From positions 535,605 to 599,604 of the forward strand of contig NZ_RAWO01000002.1 in the NCBI RefSeq assembly GCF_003668955.1: DNA of 64,000 nt, given 5' to 3'. Of the stretch, positions 18,828 through 41,258 are shown piece by piece (the first letter of the stretch is position 1; each line of letters begins with the position of its first letter). Below the pieces are notes generated by a model. The model had not been told where the DNA came from, did no database searches, and worked only from the letters and a program-made list of their open reading frames with translations. Made by a program: the position numbers and the translations under genes. Source of the stretch: Corallococcus sp. AB038B. GTDB lineage: Bacteria; Myxococcota; Myxococcia; Myxococcales; Myxococcaceae.

Positions 18828-20567
18828 TCAAGGCGAGACCGCGGCCATGATGTACCGGGGCAGGAGTTCCTCGCGGAACTTCCGCCAGATGGCGACGTGG
18901 TTGTAGTTGCCCGCGGTGAACAGCACGACGAGGTCCAGCTCCGGGACGACCATCACGAGCTGGCCACCGTTGCCGCTGGCCTCGTACTGCGAATACACAC
19001 GGTCGCCGACGCGGAGCTCATGGCGCCACCACGTGTAGCCATAGGTCCGTCCGTCCGGCATCGTCGCCTGGTTCGCGACGGAGCGTTCCACCCAGCGCTG
19101 GCTGACCACGCGCTTCCCGTTCCAAGTGCCACCGGAGAGGTAGAGCTGCCCGAGCTTCAGGGCGTCGCGAGGGCGCATGTAGATGCCGCCGCCGAGGTAC
19201 TGCTCGCCGTCAGGCATCAGGTCCAGGTGGTAGCCGCGCATCTGGAGGGGCGTGGCGACGTTCTTCGTGAAGAACTCGGGGATCCACGTGCGGGTGGTGT
19301 TGCGGACGACGCCGCCCAGCAGGTTGATGTTCGCGGAGCAGTACACGGCCTTCCCGCCGCCGGGAGCACGGACCATGGGGAGGTCCAGCGTGTACTTGTA
19401 CCAATCCGGTACGGAGTCCTCGAGCCGGTCCTCGTTGCCGGGTGAATCCGGATTGTCGTCGTCACAAGCCAGGCCCGTCGCCATGGTCATCAGGTGCGCG
19501 ACGGTGAGCTTGCGCTTGCGCGCGTCCAGGTTGGAGAGCTTGCCTTTGTACGCGGGGAAGAGGGACGCGACGGGCGTGTCCACGGAGAAGGCCGCACCCT
19601 GGTCCAGGGCAATGCCAATCAACAGCGACGCGTAGGACTTGGAGGAGGAGCGCAGGTCGTGGGGGCGCTCCTTGTCGAAGCCCTGGAAGTACTCGTCGAC
19701 GATGAGCTTTCCGTGACGCGCGATGAGCAGCCCCTGGATGGCGGGCACTGAGTCCGGGCTGGGTTCCTGGTCGAGGATGCGCTGCACGAACTGCTGGAGC
19801 GGTTGGACGTCCATGCCGACGTCGGCAGGGGAGGCCGTGGTCCAGCCGTCGTCCTCCGCGATTGGCTTCTGGTAGGCGTAGGGGCCGGGAGCGGGCGTGC
19901 GCGAGTAGAGGCCCACGGCCTGCGACCGGTCCCGGCGGGTGAAGTCGAACGTCGTGTCGAAGGGAGGGTAGGGGAGCGACAGCCGTCCGGACTGCGAGTC
20001 GAACGTGCCTTCAATCTGGGTGTCGCCCTTGGTGGACGTGAGTCGGACCGTGCGGCCCTGGAGGTCGACACGGAAGAGCATCCGGTTGCCGAAGTTTCGC
20101 TCCGGGTTGCGGATGAACGCCGTCACGGAGCCGTCAGGCTGCTTCTGGACGACGAGGTACAGCGAGAACCGGTCCTCCAGCGGAGCCACGGTGCCGCGCC
20201 AGACGCCCGGCTGAAGTGCGCGCAGTTCCACGGGAGTGGCGAACTTCATGCCGCTCATGAGCACACGCGGCTGGATCCAGTGGCCCGTGATGCTCTGGCC
20301 GTTCTCCGCCAACGTGGCTCGGAGTTCGCCACCTGGGAAGACGACGGACACCTTCCGACTCTCAACCCGGGCAGGAACATCGAATCCGGCGATGCGCGCG
20401 CGCCAGGTGTTGCCCTCCCGAACCAGCGTCAGCTCGCCTCGGACTTGAGGACCCAGGACGCGCTCACTGCCCCAGATGCCCACCAATTGCTCGGCTGGAA
20501 TGGAAACAGCGCCGACATGGAGAGGAAGCAGCGCCAGCAGAAGCCCAAGGAAGCGATACCGGGTCAT
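18828..20567 (-). CDS. Secreted serine hydrolase, beta-lactamase/PBP4* family.
   Basis: A signal peptide is present. An SxxK motif (..RSSSKSY..) is embedded in a beta-lactamase-like domain. An N-terminal beta-rich domain precedes it. Confidence 0.75.
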   Translation of the reverse strand: MTRYRFLGLLLALLPLHVGAVSIPAEQLVGIWGSERVLGPQVRGELTLVREGNTWRARIAGFDVPARVESRKVSVVFPGGELRATLAENGQSITGHWIQPRVLMSGMKFATPVELRALQPGVWRGTVAPLEDRFSLYLVVQKQPDGSVTAFIRNPERNFGNRMLFRVDLQGRTVRLTSTKGDTQIEGTFDSQSGRLSLPYPPFDTTFDFTRRDRSQAVGLYSRTPAPGPYAYQKPIAEDDGWTTASPADVGMDVQPLQQFVQRILDQEPSPDSVPAIQGLLIARHGKLIVDEYFQGFDKERPHDLRSSSKSYASLLIGIALDQGAAFSVDTPVASLFPAYKGKLSNLDARKRKLTVAHLMTMATGLACDDDNPDSPGNEDRLEDSVPDWYKYTLDLPMVRAPGGGKAVYCSANINLLGGVVRNTTRTWIPEFFTKNVATPLQMRGYHLDLMPDGEQYLGGGIYMRPRDALKLGQLYLSGGTWNGKRVVSQRWVERSVANQATMPDGRTYGYTWWRHELRVGDRVYSQYEASGNGGQLVMVVPELDLVVLFTAGNYNHVAIWRKFREELLPRYIMAAVSP

Positions 20568-23124: not shown

Positions 23125-23189
23125 GGCTCTGCATCATACCCACTGACGCCCGTCTCCCTCCGGCATTAAGCTTTGTGGGCAGCTAGGTT

Positions 23190-23959
23190 ATCCATCAGCG
23201 CCACATCGCCTGAATGGAGCCAAGGGCAAATCCGCTGGCGGATGACTCGCCCGGAGATGCGGCCGTCGATGGCCCCTTGATGCGTCATCAACTTGGGGAA
23301 GACAGCCCTCGCGGATGGCGCCCACCAGCGTCAGGGGTGTCCAGCGTCCTCCAGGGTGCATGCATCGGGCGCGTTGGCCCATCGGAGCCCAGCTGTACTC
23401 GCGCCATGGATGTATTGCAGAAGGACTCGCCGAGGAAGACGATCCGCTGCACGTCCACAACGCTCAGGAGCGCGGCAAAGACGCTTCTGCTCCAGAAGCT
23501 TTGCGGTGCAGCGTGCTCGAAGGCGGTGAATGACTTTCTTGGGTGAGAAGCCCAGTAGATGCAGGCCCCTTTGGATTGAGGGACGGCCGGCGATGATTCC
23601 CAGGCGGGCCATCAACTCGGCCATCAGATCGCACACCGTCGCGTCCGGCTTCCGAGCCAGCAGTAGTTTGGACTCGCTGGCCACCTTGCCCCGAATAGGC
23701 GAGAAGTTGCCGTTGCCTTTGGGCCGCAGCACGACGTCTCCCGTCTCTCGGTACAGCCGGAGGCGCGGCTCACCGTCGCTTCCCCAATGCCTAGCATGTG
23801 AGCTATCTGCACATACGACAGGCCCTCGTCGTGGAAGGCCCGATCGATAGCCCGTCGCAGCTTCTCCGGGGGATGTCCTGCGCTCATCCCCAGAGAAGAG
23901 CAAGCCTCGGCGATCGCGCTAAACGAGTCCTGAGTTAATCGCAGCGTTCGCCGTTGCAA
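23190..23959 (-). pseudogene. IS630-family transposase remnant, frameshifted and 3'-truncated.
   Basis: An N-terminal HTH (..LSYVQIAHMLGIGEATVSR..) lies in one frame. It continues in a second frame (..LMAELMARLGIIAGRPSIQRGLHLLGFSPKK..) and in a third (..GDVALMDNLAAHKA*). The third matches the conserved ..MDNLSxHK.. region and is then truncated. Confidence 0.6.
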
Positions 23960-23962
23960 TGC

Positions 23963-24448
23963 TCATTTGTTCTGTAATTCTTCTTTGATCTTGGCGATAA
24001 TTGACAGTTGTCTTTTGAGTTCTCGTTCTTCTTCGTTGATGACGAGCAGTAGCTTGTAGGGGTTTCGATGGCGCTGTCGAGTTAGCTGTCGTTTGAATTG
24101 ATTGGAGAGTCCTCCATGTACTCCAATCGTGAGCTGTCTGCGTAACTGGTCACGCAGGCGACGATACTCGCTGCCGGTCAGTCTTGAGTTTTCTTGCGCA
24201 GCAGCCAAGCCAAAAAGGGCGCGTAGTTGCTTCCCGTATTCAGATACTAACGCAAATGTGATGCCAAGCACCGCCAGCGTCATCGAGATGACGAGAAGGG
24301 CTATTTTTGTTTTGAACTCTCGTCCGCTTGGTGTGAGTGCGAATACGCTCACGGCTACTGCCGTGCCAGTTAGTGCGGATGAGACAAGCAGTCTCTTGAG
24401 TATGCGGTCAGGTTGAGAAGGTGTCGGTTTTGAATTTTTCTGCTGCAT
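23963..24448 (-). CDS. Small membrane protein with two TM helices and a cytoplasmic coiled coil; lower GC than the flanking genome.
   Basis: The ORF is 161 aa. The region is clearly AT-richer than the flanks. Two hydrophobic helices are followed by an R/Q/E/L-rich heptad region. Confidence 0.5.
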   Translation of the reverse strand: MQQKNSKPTPSQPDRILKRLLVSSALTGTAVAVSVFALTPSGREFKTKIALLVISMTLAVLGITFALVSEYGKQLRALFGLAAAQENSRLTGSEYRRLRDQLRRQLTIGVHGGLSNQFKRQLTRQRHRNPYKLLLVINEEERELKRQLSIIAKIKEELQNK

Positions 24449-24454
24449 AGATAT

Positions 24455-24952
24455 TTACTCCGTCTCGACCTGTTGGTGGATGGGCTTTGTTTGTGGGGTT
24501 TTCCTTGTAGGGGATATGTCTGATTGGCTGTTTGATGCGTCTTGATGGATGCCAACGCCTTTTATGAATAGAAAAGCGAGTAGCAAGCCTGAGCCGAGTA
24601 AGTTGCAAACGCCGGCGAGCGCGATGATGTGCCACTTGTCGAAGGGTTGACCCTCGAAGTGCTGATGGAGGGTCAGTATGAGCATGAAAACGACGAGCGA
24701 AATCAGGGTGAAGCCGACGATTCCGAGTACTCTGCGCCAGTCCTGCTGATGGCTTTGTTGCGCTAGTTCTCCAATGTATATGATGGCAGATGTCAGTGCG
24801 GCAGTGGATGATTCGATTCCAAGGAAGTATAACGGCCAATCATTCCACGCCTTCTTGCTGATGAGCTTTTTGGCAAGAACCCCAATGATTAAAAGGATAA
24901 ACGGGGGGAAGAATGCGAAGAAATAGGGGCTTTGTAAAAACTCGCCGTTCAT
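24455..24952 (-). CDS. Small four-TM membrane protein; lower GC than the flanking genome.
   Basis: The ORF is 165 aa with four hydrophobic helices. Its stop lies 7 bp before the start of the next membrane protein, so the two form an operon. Confidence 0.5.
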   Translation of the reverse strand: MNGEFLQSPYFFAFFPPFILLIIGVLAKKLISKKAWNDWPLYFLGIESSTAALTSAIIYIGELAQQSHQQDWRRVLGIVGFTLISLVVFMLILTLHQHFEGQPFDKWHIIALAGVCNLLGSGLLLAFLFIKGVGIHQDASNSQSDISPTRKTPQTKPIHQQVETE

Positions 24953-25248
24953 ACGATGGTGGATTTGAGGTGCATAATTTTGGTCGAGTGATGATGGTAG
25001 AGAATTGAATTGGATTTAAGTGCCATTGTAACGCCTTGTTCGACCTCTTGTCCTGAACATGCAGCATGGCACAAAAGAGGGGGTAGGTGTGTCCATGGGC
25101 CGCTTGTGTGCATCCTTCCTTCATTCGGGGCCCAGATCATCAGACTTGCATGAAGAGCCAACACATGGTGGCGGGGGCCGTCCGGCCAACGATGTGCCGG
25201 ATCGCTTGAGGGCGGACGGGTGTCTCGATCGCCGAACCACTCGACGGT

Positions 25249-25518
25249 TCAGGAATCGCTGTGCATGGAATGCGGCTTCTGGAAGAGTCGGCGGCGCGTT
25301 GGCAACTCCACTCGTGCGGCAGCAGTTCCTCGATGCACATCCTGGTGCGTCTGGACGCCCAACGGTACGTCGGTGAGGTACGCCTCGGGATTCACGCCGT
25401 CAGCCTCACGCATGGCGGCGAGGGGGCAGAGGTCTGCGAGGTTGTTCCTGAGGCCTTGTGGCCGACGAAAGGAAGTTCTTGCGGACAGTGCCAAGGCCCA
25501 GGTAAGCGGAGCGCGCAA
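25249..25518 (-). pseudogene. IS66-family transposase C-terminal fragment.
   Basis: ..NLADLCPLAAMREADGVNPEAYLTDV.. resembles the conserved TnpC C-terminal ..LNGxDPEAYLRDVL.. motif. No full ORF is present. Confidence 0.4.
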
Positions 25519-25968
25519 GGGTTGATTGAAGGGAACGCATACGCTGACCGCTCAGGACTGGCTACTTGCCCCACGCACGTGCGAAGAGCGGGGTATGGGT
25601 GCAGACCTGTTCAGGTTTCGGCGAGGCTGGCCCTGTCGCTCCCGAGCACACGGGCTCGCGGGCCTGATCGAAACCACCATCCAATAAGGTAAACCGCGAG
25701 CAGTCCCATAGGGGCCTATGACAACGCACTGAAGACGGGAGCGCTATGCCATGAAAAGCGCGGACGACAAATAGCCGCCGCTTTTCAGTGTGAGTTTTTG
25801 GTTGATATTTCTCAGTAGCTTCAATAGTCCCAACTCGCCTCAGGTAAGGCCTGAATCAGGAGGCTGGTTTTGATGGCAGGCAGGAAATTGCTTGCATCCA
25901 CTATGGAGTGTCTGCCGAGCGAGGTTTTATGGGTTCGAATTTATTGATGCCGCTGTCTTGGAACTTGT

Positions 25969-27255
25969 TTATTGGTCACCACTGACGTGCCACTCTGCCC
26001 GAGCTAAGAGTTCGTCGAATGTGATGATTTCCGGTTCATACAAGTTGCGTCTGTAGAGTTCGAATGACTGGTATTTATCGCGATGCACGCCACCGCCCGA
26101 GCCCCGAAGTTGGTCCAGATGTCCTGCGATAAGGAAGGAACGCGGCCTGACGACAAAGGTCCCATCCTGTGTTTCTGCCCCGTCTTCATCCGTGTCGGAT
26201 AGATATGAACCTATCTGTTTTGCAGCCAGATGAATCGTCTGCTGCACCTGAGTGACACCTCCGACAAGCTCTGGAGAAGGTGCCCAACAGCCTGGGCGAT
26301 ACTCTTGGCTTGCGAGCAGTTTGGTTTCGTGGTGTTTAATTTCTGCGAACACCATTGCGCGAATTCTGCCATTGGTGCGCATAAGGGCATCTGCGCGCTT
26401 GCCGGAACCTGCGATCGAGAAGCCGGCGACTACTTGCTCCAGTTTGTTTTTGCTCCAGGATGTCAAAAGTTGACCAGTTAAGCTGATGCCCAGGATCCAC
26501 GGGTTTTGTTCAAGAAGTGCCTGCCAGACCTGCTCCCGGCTACCCCCATGCAGGACTCGCGCGCGCTCGAAATGGTTCTCATCGGAGAGCAGATCTCGGA
26601 ACTCTTGAACCACCTTCTTGCGGTGGGCAAGTGCAACGAGATCCTCAGCCGAAGCGTCGTTCTCAATGATTTGGCGGAATTTGGCAGGGTCCCGAGAGTA
26701 CAAACGAAGCATTGCCTCAGGATCGGCGAAGAAGTCGCGAATCGTTTGATCGTCTATTCGGATTCTTGATTCCCCTCCTTCAACTGGAATGTGTTTGAGT
26801 GCCTGAATCATGTCAACGAGCCTTGCCGCAGCTTCGCGATCGAGAGTCAGGAGATTCTCAAGTTTTGTTGCGTCACCGCTCGTGGGAACTCGCTGGATTT
26901 GCAGTTCTCTGACTTGGCCCGTTTCCCGGGCAATTTGTATCTTAATTTGCTTGCGACCACCTGGCGTGGTGAACACTGTTTGCTCCGTCCGCTCTAGGTT
27001 GTGGGGTGTATTTTCGGGTTGATTTGGCTCATTAGACTCGTCGAAAACCTTGACTATGAAGCGAGCTGGCTGGCCGTAGTCCTGTGAGGCACGTAGATCC
27101 AGGGTGAAGGTACGGTGGATGTAAGTGCAGTCAGTTCTTCGGCCGCGCGCATACGTCACTTCGTTAGGTTTGAAAATGACATTTCGAGGTTCGCTATTGT
27201 TGCCCCCCGGCAATGGCGCGTTCACCCGTCGTTCATGCTCGTAGTCATGTGGCAT
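25969..27255 (-). CDS. Shedu-like (DUF4263-type) PD-(D/E)xK nuclease-domain protein; putative anti-phage defence.
   Basis: The C-terminal region ..LEQNPWILGISLTG...GKRADALMRTNGRIRAMVFAEIKHHETKLL.. fits the D...ExK core of the PD-(D/E)xK/DUF4263 family. The N-terminal half is unrelated. GC is clearly lower than the flanking genome. The ORF is 428 aa. Confidence 0.55.
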   Translation of the reverse strand: MPHDYEHERRVNAPLPGGNNSEPRNVIFKPNEVTYARGRRTDCTYIHRTFTLDLRASQDYGQPARFIVKVFDESNEPNQPENTPHNLERTEQTVFTTPGGRKQIKIQIARETGQVRELQIQRVPTSGDATKLENLLTLDREAAARLVDMIQALKHIPVEGGESRIRIDDQTIRDFFADPEAMLRLYSRDPAKFRQIIENDASAEDLVALAHRKKVVQEFRDLLSDENHFERARVLHGGSREQVWQALLEQNPWILGISLTGQLLTSWSKNKLEQVVAGFSIAGSGKRADALMRTNGRIRAMVFAEIKHHETKLLASQEYRPGCWAPSPELVGGVTQVQQTIHLAAKQIGSYLSDTDEDGAETQDGTFVVRPRSFLIAGHLDQLRGSGGGVHRDKYQSFELYRRNLYEPEIITFDELLARAEWHVSGDQ

Positions 27256-27831
27256 TTTTTTGCCTCTAGCCTATTCGCGAAGGCGTGCCGCAGCGAGTTT
27301 CTACGTTATTGCCGAATCTTCTTGGCGGGGACGTCTTGGGTGTTGGTCAAGTTGGGCACTTGCAGGGTTGGGGATGTAGGGAGGTAACGAAGTTCCTTGG
27401 GTGCTTGCATCCTCTCTAGAGGGCATCAGTCATGAGGTAGACATCAACGCCCGCGTCGGCGTTCTTGGCGCCCTTGACCTCCCGCTTGAGGGGAGTGTAT
27501 CGGTTCAGCTTGAAATCCTGGGCCCGCATGCTGTGTGAGTGATACCGGCATCTTCATCGAAAATGAACTCGGTCTTCGAGGTCATGCTTCTGACCTGTGC
27601 AGTGGATGCCAGCGTCTTGCTGGTGGGGGCCGCTGCGACGGGTCGGCACGGCGGACACTGACTTCAACCTGAGGTGAATCAGCTTCTCCCAACTGGAAGA
27701 GCGGTGTCTTGGCCGACTTCGCTCTGCTTTGGCATCACCCGGAAGCGGGATGGACACGGGCACGAAAACGCCGCCTCGCTTCCGGATGACCGGAAACGGG
27801 CGGCGTGGGCACAGCCTGAACTGACGAAGAA

Positions 27832-29430
27832 CTACCGGCGCTTCTGCGCCGCGTCCGCGTGCTTCTCCATGAACTCCGAATACGGGCCGTTGAAGTCGAG
27901 CACTTCCTTGCCCGCCTCCAGGCTCCAGATGCGGGTCGCGACCTCGGAGATGAGCTCCTGGTCGTGCGTCACGCAGATGACCGTGCCGTCGAACTTCGAC
28001 AGGCCTTCGGCCAGCGCCGCGATGGACTCCAGGTCCAGGTGGTTCGTCGGCTCGTCCAGGATGAGCACGTTGTCCTGCGTGATCATCAGCTTGGACAACA
28101 GCACGCGCACCGTCTCACCACCGGAGAGCGTGTCCGTGGGCTTCATCCGCTCCTCACCCGAGAAGAGCATCCGGCCCAACACGCCCGAAATCTCCTCGTT
28201 CGTCAGCTTCTCGCTGATCTCCCGCAGGTAGCCGAAGCACGTCGTCCCCTTGTGGATGACGCCGTGGTGGTCCTGCGGCAGGTAGCCCACCGTCGCCTGG
28301 TGGCCCCAGGTGATGGTCCCCGCGTCCGGCTCCAGCTGGTTGGCCAGCATCTTCACCAGCGTGGACTTACCCACGGCGTTGCGGCCAATCACGCAGATGC
28401 GCTCGCCCTTGCAGACCAGGCCCGTGAACGGCTTGATGACCGGCACCCCGTCGAAGGACTTCTTCAGGCCCTCGAACATCAGCGTCTGACGACCGCTGAT
28501 CACCTTCTGGTCGAACCGGATGAACGGCCGCGCGATGTTCGAGCGCTTCAGGTCCTCCGTCTTCAGCTTGTCGATCTGCTTGATGCGGCTCTGCACCTGC
28601 GACGCTCGCGTACCGGCGTGGAAGCGCGCCACGAAGTCCTGCAGCTGGGCGATCTTCTTCTTCTTCTCTTCCGTCTCGGACTCGACCCGGGTCCGCAGCT
28701 GCGACTTCTGCCGGACCATGTCGTCGTAACCACCCGTGTACTGGATGATGGTCTCGTAATCGATGTCCGCGATGTGCGTGCAGATGGAGTTCAGGAAGTG
28801 CCGGTCGTGGCTGATGGTGATCAGCACGCCCTCGTACACATGGAGGAAGTTCTCCAGCCAGCGGATGGAGTCGATATCCAGGTTGTTCGTGGGCTCGTCG
28901 AGCAGCAGCCCCTCCGGCTTGCCGAACAGCGCCTGCGCGAGCAGCACTCGCAGCTTCAGGCCGCCCGTCAGCTGGCGCATGGGCTCTTCGTGGAAGGACT
29001 CCTCGATGCCCAGGCCGGCCAGCAGCGTGGCCGCGTCGCTCTCCGCCGAGTAGCCGTCCTCTTCCGCGATGACGCCTTCCAGCTCACCCAGCCGGTTGCC
29101 GTCCTCCTCGGTGATGTCGGCCTTGGCCAGGAGCTTGTTCTTCTCGTCCATCGCCGCCCACAGGTGGCGGTTGCCCATCAGCACCACGTCGATGACGCGG
29201 TCGCTCTCGTAGCGGAAGTGGTCCTGGCGCAGGATGCCCAGCTTCCGCGGGCGGATGATGTCGCCCATGTCCTGCTCCTCGTCTCCCGCGAGGATCTTCA
29301 TGAACGTGGACTTGCCGGCCCCGTTCGGACCGGTCAGGCCGTAGCGGCGGCCCGGCGAGAAGGCGACGTTGACCTCCTCGAACAGCTTCTTGGGCCCATA
29401 GGCCTTGGAGACGTTGATGACGTTGAACAT
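27832..29430 (-). CDS. ABC-F family ATPase (translation factor type, two ABC domains).
   Basis: It is read from MFNVINVSKAYGPKK (532 aa). Two Walker A motifs (GPNGAGKST / GRNAVGKST) and two LSGG signatures are present. The upstream part of the track ORF is non-coding. Confidence 0.85.
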   Translation of the reverse strand: MFNVINVSKAYGPKKLFEEVNVAFSPGRRYGLTGPNGAGKSTFMKILAGDEEQDMGDIIRPRKLGILRQDHFRYESDRVIDVVLMGNRHLWAAMDEKNKLLAKADITEEDGNRLGELEGVIAEEDGYSAESDAATLLAGLGIEESFHEEPMRQLTGGLKLRVLLAQALFGKPEGLLLDEPTNNLDIDSIRWLENFLHVYEGVLITISHDRHFLNSICTHIADIDYETIIQYTGGYDDMVRQKSQLRTRVESETEEKKKKIAQLQDFVARFHAGTRASQVQSRIKQIDKLKTEDLKRSNIARPFIRFDQKVISGRQTLMFEGLKKSFDGVPVIKPFTGLVCKGERICVIGRNAVGKSTLVKMLANQLEPDAGTITWGHQATVGYLPQDHHGVIHKGTTCFGYLREISEKLTNEEISGVLGRMLFSGEERMKPTDTLSGGETVRVLLSKLMITQDNVLILDEPTNHLDLESIAALAEGLSKFDGTVICVTHDQELISEVATRIWSLEAGKEVLDFNGPYSEFMEKHADAAQKRR

Positions 29431-29479
29431 GGCGGCGGCTTGTAACGGAAATGGCGCGGCGACCCAAGACGCGCGGTAA

Positions 29480-30883
<1,404 letters not shown>

Positions 30884-39888: not shown

Positions 39889-40905
39889 TCATCCGCCGCG
39901 TGGGTCGTAGATTTTCTCGGGAGGGGCCTCCAGGAAGCGGCGCCACCAGAGACGGGCCTCGTCGTCGGTGTAGCCGTCCCAGGTGTTGACGTGGGGGAAG
40001 GGCAGGAGCCAGGGCTCCAGGAACCGGGCCAGCTCGCGATACGCCGGCAGTGTCTCACCCAGCTTCGTGTCCCCGGCGAGCGGCTCGGGGCCCAGGCTGA
40101 TCAGGGCGCGGCCTCCGGTGAGTTCCTGGACGGTGGTCTCCGGATGGCTCAGATGCGAGCGAAGTGCCTGGATACCGCCAACGGTTTCGAGCAGGGGAGG
40201 GCCCAGGAAGTTCAGCCAGTGCACGTCGTCAATCCACGGTCCCAAGCCCCACGCCAGCGTAGGCGGAACGTGCCAGCCGGGATGCCTGGACAGCTGCTCT
40301 TTAAGCAGGGGAAGAAGTTTCGACCTCCCGCGTGTGAATGAGAGCGACAGCCCGGCATGGCCCGTGGAGAGCGGAAGAAGCTCCGCCAGAGACCGTGCCA
40401 GTGCAAAGGCCTTCTCGGGCCCCTGTGTCTCCAGGAAGCTTATCGGGAGCTTCACGCTCAGCACGCTGTGCTCGGAAGTGGGTTCTCTCCATGGGAGCCG
40501 AGACTCGAAACTGAATTCATAGCCATCTGGCTCCGAATGTCCTCCCTTGAGGATGACCCATGTGTCGAAGCCCCTCTTGGTCAATCTTCGGAACCAGTAG
40601 GAGTCTTGATCCATGTCGTCCAGGTATTCGAATCGAGACTTGGTGAGGTGGCGTTGAGCTTCCTCCCAAAACTCGGACTCAAGCGGGAAGGCATCCTCAA
40701 TGACGTCGGAATCCTCTCCGACGGTCAGTGCCCCGCCACTGGCAGCAATGAATCCGAGATAGGTGTCGAGGACCCGTCGTAGGACTGGGGCCAGCACTCC
40801 GTGGTCATGCGGCAGGTAGAACACGATGCGCAGGACCAGTTGGACCCGGGGGAGCGTCGGGGCGAAGTGTTGCAGGAACGGATACTTACTCACGCACGAC
40901 TCCAA
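39889..40905 (-). CDS. Hypothetical protein (possibly DUF3396/immunity-like; not verified).
   Basis: The ORF is 338 aa with good codon bias. It is the last gene of a three-gene same-strand operon. Confidence 0.5.
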
Positions 40906-40967
40906 ACTGGGGCGTGATGATCGCGGGCTTGCACTTTCCTCTCAGCTCCGCGTAGCGGGCCATTTGT

Positions 40968-41258
40968 TCACGGGTTCCGTCGTTGGAGAGGGGGTCGCCC
41001 TTGCTTTTCATCGTGCACGGGAACTTGAGGTCGAAAATGCATTGGATTTGGAATCGTGGCGCCCGCGGAAGCCGCTGCCCTCACGGCCTTGTCCATCCAA
41101 GGCAGGAACGCCTCATCCCCCGGCTGCGTGTAGCAGGTGGGATTGCGCAGACATCCACTGGTCGCGGAGTCCGTGGTCTGCGCGTACTGCCTTGGACCCG
41201 AAGCGCACGACAGACAGAGCAGGGCCACCAGCCCACCCAGGAGGCGCAACTCAATCAT
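40968..41258 (-). CDS. Small lipoprotein (about 96 aa), hypothetical.
   Basis: MIELRLLGGLVALLCLSCASG has a signal and lipobox. Its ATG overlaps the stop of the upstream gene (ATGA). The track ORF 40968..41438 extends upstream as a non-coding artefact. Confidence 0.4.
   Translation of the reverse strand: MIELRLLGGLVALLCLSCASGPRQYAQTTDSATSGCLRNPTCYTQPGDEAFLPWMDKAVRAAASAGATIPNPMHFRPQVPVHDEKQGRPPLQRRNP

Follow-up and report, generated by a model that had tools for sequence, protein, structure and literature searches.

A Type 1A Shedu immune nuclease of cluster N3 on a low-GC, probably horizontally acquired island of Corallococcus sp. AB038B

Introduction

A 64,000-nucleotide stretch of DNA from the myxobacterium Corallococcus sp. 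AB038B (contig NZ_RAWO01000002.1, positions 535,605 to 599,604; referred to as the window) includes a gene whose 428-residue product was proposed, in an initial annotation made from the sequence letters, to join a Shedu-like PD-(D/E)xK nuclease core to an unrelated N-terminal half. The question raised by this locus is whether the protein is a Shedu nuclease and, if so, whether the N-terminal half makes it a new subtype. The gene product is almost certainly a Shedu nuclease of Type 1A, N-domain cluster N3. The broader reading, in which a Type 1A Shedu immune nuclease resides on a horizontally acquired island and is controlled by the regulatory mechanism proposed below, is considered, when taken jointly, very probable. 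By analogy with characterised Shedu proteins, the predicted role is that of a single-protein system against phage or other foreign DNA. The gene and its nuclease domain are as follows.

25969..27255, minus strand: sduA, complete Shedu immune nuclease gene, 428 amino acids (open reading frame, ORF, from ATG to stop)
26005..26541, minus strand: DUF4263 / SduA_C PD-(D/E)xK nuclease domain, residues 239-417 (Pfam match)

The ORF is placed exactly as in the initial annotation, and both peptides quoted there are located in its product, with LEQNPWILG forming residues 248-256 and GKRADALMRTNGRIRAMVFAEIKHHETKL residues 285-313. The product is 100% identical to WP_121759586.1 / RKI01535.1 of Corallococcus sp. 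AB038B, the accessions being tied to the sequences by exact look-up.

Assignment to the Shedu family

The Shedu (DUF4263) call is fully borne out by profile searches. The comparison with DUF4263 recommended in the initial annotation gives a significant match to Pfam SduA_C (PF14082, formerly DUF4263; E=2.8e-32, 112.5 bits versus a gathering cutoff of 27) that spans profile positions 2-159 of 159 and is preceded by 238 residues. In PADLOC, 13 SduA subfamily models match the protein, the best of which, PDLC00394 (E=3.3e-134), aligns residues 31-426 with profile positions 3-385 of 392; several of the subfamily models start matching only at about residue 193-194. An NCBIfam scan of the 428-residue protein returned no family and is uninformative. 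A pattern as short as D-x(15)-E-x-K carries little information by itself, whereas chance cannot account for profile matches of this strength.

Structural comparisons point the same way. When solved structures are searched by sequence, Shedu proteins are the sole matches, all within the nuclease domain: the Bacillus cereus entries 8ti8, 8ti9 and 8tia are detected with E=8e-13 by the sequence alone and 5e-21 once a profile of 42 sequences is used, and Escherichia coli SduA (8ps4) with E=2.7e-4 using the same profile. The full-length AlphaFold2 model has a mean predicted local distance difference test score (pLDDT) of 64, rising to 80-96 in the nuclease core. A Foldseek search with this model, of the kind suggested in the initial annotation, retrieved Shedu entries alone at E<0.1, and the nuclease fold matches the solved Shedu structures. 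Thus, the proposal of a different PD-(D/E)xK defence nuclease is set aside, given that the protein is itself catalogued as a Shedu. Other PD-(D/E)xK nucleases, including NucS/EndoMS, N.BspD6I, FokI and NucC, have no sequence-level relationship to it; these enzymes have neither the N3 domain nor the linker, nor the elaborations peculiar to Shedu, and function in mismatch repair, in restriction or as an effector of the cyclic oligonucleotide-based antiphage signalling system (CBASS).

Catalytic residues

The catalytic motifs of the B. cereus Shedu are E204 (motif I), D249 (motif II), E264/K266 (motif III) and Q295 (motif IV), and mutation of D249 or E264 ends its defence activity (Gu et al., bioRxiv 10.1101/2023.08.10.552793). 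Equivalent residues were assigned by alignment to 8ti8, in which the chain numbering is the native numbering plus 2.

26533..26535, minus strand: motif I glutamate E241, aligned with B. cereus E204
26389..26391, minus strand: motif II aspartate D289, aligned with B. cereus D249, at the end of a low-confidence loop (residues 257-293)
26335..26343, minus strand: motif III E305-x-K307, aligned with B. cereus E264/K266
26248..26250, minus strand: motif IV glutamine Q336, aligned with B. cereus Q295

The Asp of RADAL and the Glu and Lys of AEIK, which had been named as catalytic from the sequence, were correctly chosen, as they correspond to D289 and E305/K307. The 8ti9 chain carries an E-to-A substitution that renders it catalytically dead at the position aligned with the motif III glutamate. 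E241, D289, E305, K307 and Q336 are invariant in an alignment of 42 full-length homologues. Judged from these alignments, all four PD-(D/E)xK motifs are intact.

The segment that ends at D289 (residues 257-293) has pLDDT <50 and is the positional counterpart of the mobile "motif II loop", which keeps D249 more than 20 Å from the other catalytic residues while the B. cereus tetramer is inactive (Gu et al.). Spatial clustering of the Asp, Glu and Lys in a monomer model, which had been suggested as a means of refuting the nuclease assignment, is therefore not a valid test for this family.

The N-terminal half and its place in the Shedu census

The region that precedes the nuclease domain begins with an unconserved tail (residues 1-27) and is composed of two parts.

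26785..27174, minus strand: N-terminal sensor/regulatory domain, residues 28-157, cluster N3 of Gu et al. (Table S3, conservation, predicted strands)
26542..26784, minus strand: helical linker, residues 158-238 (predicted helices), the counterpart of the B. cereus four-helix linker

In the model, the N-domain has strands at residues 44-51, 63-72, 101-109, 114-123 and 133-138 followed by a helix at 140-153 (pLDDT 55-77), and the linker has five helices (169-177, 179-188, 190-199, 203-224 and 226-235). The linker of the B. cereus protein is a four-helix domain formed by its residues 118-170 (Gu et al.). Although the monomer models are of low confidence, the order of strands and helices fits the B. 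cereus arrangement of one beta-beta-beta-beta-alpha repeat of the sPC4/Whirly type leading into a helical linker. The N-half modelled alone (residues 28-240, 30 sequences) reached a pLDDT of 56.6, too poor for a fold search. Many residues of the N-half, among them S57, R65, K69, F71, D72, R101, Q103, G113, R116, R140 and R145, are invariant in the 42-homologue alignment. The basic residues R65, K69, R101 and R116 may contribute to a proposed nucleic-acid-binding surface, in parallel with R29, which was mutated in B. cereus.

A published census of the family (Gu et al.) contains this exact protein. Table S3 of that study lists WP_121759586.1 of Corallococcus sp. AB038B as "4263N3+DUF4263", with an N-length of 239 and a C-length of 11, and the classification sheet of the same study assigns cluster N3 to Type 1A, with an sPC4/Whirly fold and 1,684 of 7,687 Shedu proteins. 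The ortholog WP_120529633.1 (88-89% identity) and the homologue AHC24708.1 (~60%) are likewise entered as 4263N3+DUF4263. The suggestion of a new Shedu subtype is accordingly not supported, and the view of the N-half as unrelated and new survives in part: no similarity in sequence links the N-half to the N-domain of either solved Shedu (B. cereus and E. coli), and N-half profiles run against sequences of the PDB gave chance matches only (E>=1), but PDLC00394 covers the region, more than 100 full-length homologues conserve it and Table S3 places it in N3. The B. cereus Shedu proteins belong to cluster N1, which is Type 1A like N3 (Gu et al. Table S3); this difference of cluster explains why the N-half finds no sequence match in 8ti8 despite the shared fold class. 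Protein, family and N-domain cluster are all already annotated and published, and none of them is new.

Relatives are numerous. A search of 5.8 billion proteins gave 1,019 matches; the 120 that were listed align over 84-100% of the query, with identities of 57-100%, and the top match, 100% identical, is named Shedu immune nuclease family protein. Orthologs are noted in Corallococcus exercitus (88-89% identity) and Cystobacter fuscus (81%), and relatives of ~60% identity occur in the Actinobacteria Pseudonocardia, Mycolicibacterium neoaurum and Actinomycetospora. The ratio of nonsynonymous to synonymous substitution rates (dN/dS) versus the C. exercitus ortholog is 0.09 for the whole gene; taken separately, the N-half gives 0.13 and the nuclease half 0.05, values that indicate purifying selection on both.

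The N-domain appears to be Shedu-specific on the sample scanned. A profile of residues 28-157 matched just 159 clusters at E<=0.001 among 1.84 billion representatives, ten of which were taken into a Pfam scan. The seven clear matches longer than 300 residues (P0140, P0141, P0155, P0176, P0225, P0262 and P0277) all contain SduA_C. Of the other scanned matches, P0138 is a 207-residue fragment and P0167 a truncated ORF with the domain cut at its C-terminal end. P0264, a candidate for an N-domain without Shedu, was rejected as spurious, being an Ig-repeat protein matched weakly in five stretches.

Relative to the N3 subfamily, nothing of substance differs: the protein is a listed member and the PDLC00394 model matches it end to end, while its N-region of 239 residues is somewhat longer than most N3 entries in the part of Table S3 compared (about 197-229). 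It conforms to the Type 1 layout of Gu et al. and type I of Loeff et al., with a substantial N-terminal region followed by a C-terminal DUF4263. Compared to the B. cereus B4264 Shedu / SduA (8TI8, 8TI9, 8TIA; Gu et al.), which carries an N1 domain with no detectable sequence similarity to the N3 domain, the protein is 48 residues longer, with the 27-residue tail and a low-confidence segment at residues 74-98, and its host is a high-GC myxobacterium and not a Firmicute.

Proposed mode of action

A detailed regulatory mechanism is proposed by analogy with the B. cereus enzyme and is regarded as moderately favoured. The protein would form a homotetramer through its nuclease domains, as inferred from the B. 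cereus Shedu (Gu et al.). At rest, the enzyme would be kept inactive by its N-domain and linker, with D289 on its loop (residues 257-293) away from the active site. The sPC4/Whirly-type N-domains, paired as dimers, may then recognise a nucleic acid that signals infection. The probable ligand is single-stranded DNA or a terminus of a linear phage genome, perhaps a single-stranded end carried by a linear genome on injection. Binding would lift the inhibition and allow the nuclease to nick or cut the invading DNA, such that the circular host chromosome is spared and the host is not killed. Even for the B. cereus Shedu, the ligand is not established in vitro. Activation of that enzyme is coupled to octamer formation, and its double-strand cutting leaves a 7-base 3' overhang. 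The octamer-interface residue of the B. cereus protein, Y315, aligns with D356, and its loop lysines K238 and K241 align with S280 and G283 in a poorly alignable loop, so that these residues are not obviously conserved here. Thus, activation coupled to octamer formation cannot be assumed for the Corallococcus enzyme.

The strongest competing explanation, although an improbable one, is that the protein works like E. coli SduA (8PS4/8PS5), in which the N-domains of a tetramer clamp free double-stranded DNA ends and the enzyme nicks ~14 bp from the 5' end without an octamer (Loeff et al.). The clamp mechanism of the E. coli enzyme is not established for Type 1A, and the two proteins share 18% identity in the aligned core with N-domains that are unrelated at the sequence level.

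Genomic context and beneficiary of the nuclease

The window averages ~70% guanine plus cytosine (GC) but falls to 0.44-0.64 between ~23.85 and 27.6 kb. The low-GC setting noted in the initial annotation is real: sduA has a GC of 0.532 and a third-position GC (GC3) of 0.548 against the ~0.70 background, while the flanking genes have GC3 values of 0.95 (ABC-F) and 0.85 (a 483-residue gene).

23850..27600, unstranded: low-GC horizontally acquired island with sduA (composition, C. exercitus synteny, sub-threshold insertion sequence matches)
~25.65-27.6 kb: Shedu block of the island, GC 0.49-0.56
~25.05-25.8 kb: IS66-like remnant block, GC 0.59-0.64
~23.85-25.2 kb: strain-specific two-ORF insert, GC 0.44-0.52
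27263..27267, minus strand: possible Shine-Dalgarno AGAGG, 7 nt 5' of the ATG, read directly (consensus resemblance only)

The gene has the three-part Type 1 layout of N-domain, helical linker and nuclease, is under selection and mobile, and stands as a single gene without a conserved partner. Its description as a single gene holds in that no neighbour is conserved across six loci from relatives, the neighbours differing at all six (L001-L005 and L007). A PADLOC scan of neighbouring ORFs found no second defence system, Rfam gave no match at the Shedu locus, a distant-mode comparison of window positions 23200-25968 with plasmids gave no match, and alignment of the DNA upstream of the gene among the relatives (mean column identity 42%) revealed no conserved regulatory element. 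The C. exercitus contig L002 has its Shedu gene at the same locus, flanked by the ABC-F ATPase gene on one side and the 483-residue gene/kinase block on the other, with no counterpart of window positions 23530-25967. The Pseudonocardia locus has two integrases and a relaxase, that of M. neoaurum has insertion sequence (IS) fragments, and one metagenome contig with a Shedu relative encodes a TrwC relaxase and helicase/nuclease (RecD- and UvrD-type) genes. This context fits published reports of Shedu as single-gene cargo of mobile elements, of which 1,110 associations with transposable elements are recorded (Gu et al.).

Such company raises the alternative that the nuclease chiefly serves the element that carries it, through inter-element competition, exclusion of plasmid or transforming DNA, or addiction, and not the protection of its host from phage. 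This explanation, which is doubtful, draws on the relatives that lie between integrases or beside relaxases or IS fragments, on the decayed IS remnants that adjoin the gene in its low-GC island, on the transposable element associations and on the finding that E. coli Shedu blocks the propagation of linear DNA (Loeff et al.). It concerns the beneficiary and not the mechanism, as the biochemistry is the same either way. Moreover, the gene has stayed at one chromosomal locus in two Corallococcus species, with a dN/dS of 0.09, while the flanking IS have decayed, which suggests a benefit to the host. That the gene is a decaying, non-functional relic of past transfer is very improbable: its surroundings are degraded IS fragments and a scan of 25500-27900 gave no sigma-70-like promoter, but that scan covered the E. 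coli-type consensus only and carries little weight for a myxobacterium, the reading frame is intact with all catalytic motifs invariant, purifying selection is strong on both halves (dN/dS 0.05-0.13) and the ortholog is kept in C. exercitus and C. fuscus.

Other features of the locus and its relatives

The 81% ortholog of Cystobacter fuscus (L001, CP043492.1, 2727-12170) is in another neighbourhood, which looks like a defence island and includes a restriction-like Mrr_cat protein, a PUA-like+Metallophos protein, an HTH_31 regulator and a Ser/Thr kinase.

Next to the Shedu block, two minus-strand ORFs (24455-24952, 165 residues, and 23963-24448, 161 residues) lie 6 nt apart in the lowest-GC part of the island (GC 0.49). 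Inspection by eye indicates ~4 hydrophobic, possibly membrane-spanning segments in the 165-residue product and two plus a charged helical tail in the 161-residue product; neither product is assigned to a family by Pfam, PADLOC or NCBIfam-type models. The 165-residue protein has phrog_25392 (unknown function) as its sole match (E=3.8e-7) and matched itself alone among 5.8 billion proteins. The two-ORF block (23963-24952) is missing from the syntenic C. exercitus locus and could represent separate mobile cargo beside Shedu. Decayed IS remnants appear to flank it (23188-23959 and 25140-25520), a suggestive reading in which all matches are below Pfam thresholds. The first, IS630-like and on the minus strand, includes an HTH_29/HTH_23-type helix-turn-helix (23624-23959) and a DDE_3 fragment (23188-23460, E=0.008); the second is an IS66 C-terminal fragment on the minus strand (25249-25518, E=0.048) with the peptide GVNPEAYLTDV, and IEELLPHEW in the next frame.

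A 20-nt imperfect direct repeat that brackets the Shedu gene (25889-25908 and 27402-27421; 17/20; TGCTTGCATCC) was rejected as a cassette boundary. Chance alone would place an estimated ~0.4 such pairs in 5.4 kb, and its absence from the C. exercitus locus also counts against this role.

Downstream of the C. exercitus Shedu (RAVW01000432.1, 4242-4666) is a second, 81% identical copy of the 5' end of a beta-lactamase-like gene (window 20091-20517; gene 18828-20567). This copy is not at the equivalent place in the window, and the duplication is probably a rearrangement scar at an insertion hotspot. On the other side of sduA, the minus-strand ORF 27832-29769, listed as 645 residues, encodes an ABC-F type ATPase with two ABC_tran domains and ABC_tran_Xtn. 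Its true start is probably the internal MFNVINVSKAYG, giving ~532 residues as annotated in C. exercitus, and the long N-terminal extension looks like an artefact of high-GC ORF calling. Elsewhere, window positions 40001-41000 show a milder GC dip (0.62 versus ~0.70-0.73 in neighbouring segments) that overlaps ORFs 39889-40905 (minus) and 40357-40782 (plus).

Significance

The protein is a textbook Type 1A Shedu, already so named by NCBI, and has little significance beyond its correct annotation. When variable N-terminal regions are encountered on defence nucleases, the PADLOC subfamily models and Table S3 of Gu et al. should be checked before novelty is claimed. No experimentally characterised N3-type Shedu was found in the literature. 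There is a slim chance that the N3 domain senses another infection signal or is activated otherwise than the N1 enzyme of B. cereus, for example without an octamer, a possibility prompted by the non-conserved interface tyrosine, or that the gene provides a first handle on the defence of Corallococcus against myxophages. A different mode of sensing or activation, if true, would be a variation within the known Shedu framework and not a new system. What value the gene retains lies in its possible use to represent the N3 sensor cluster in experiments, or in studies of phage defence in myxobacteria.
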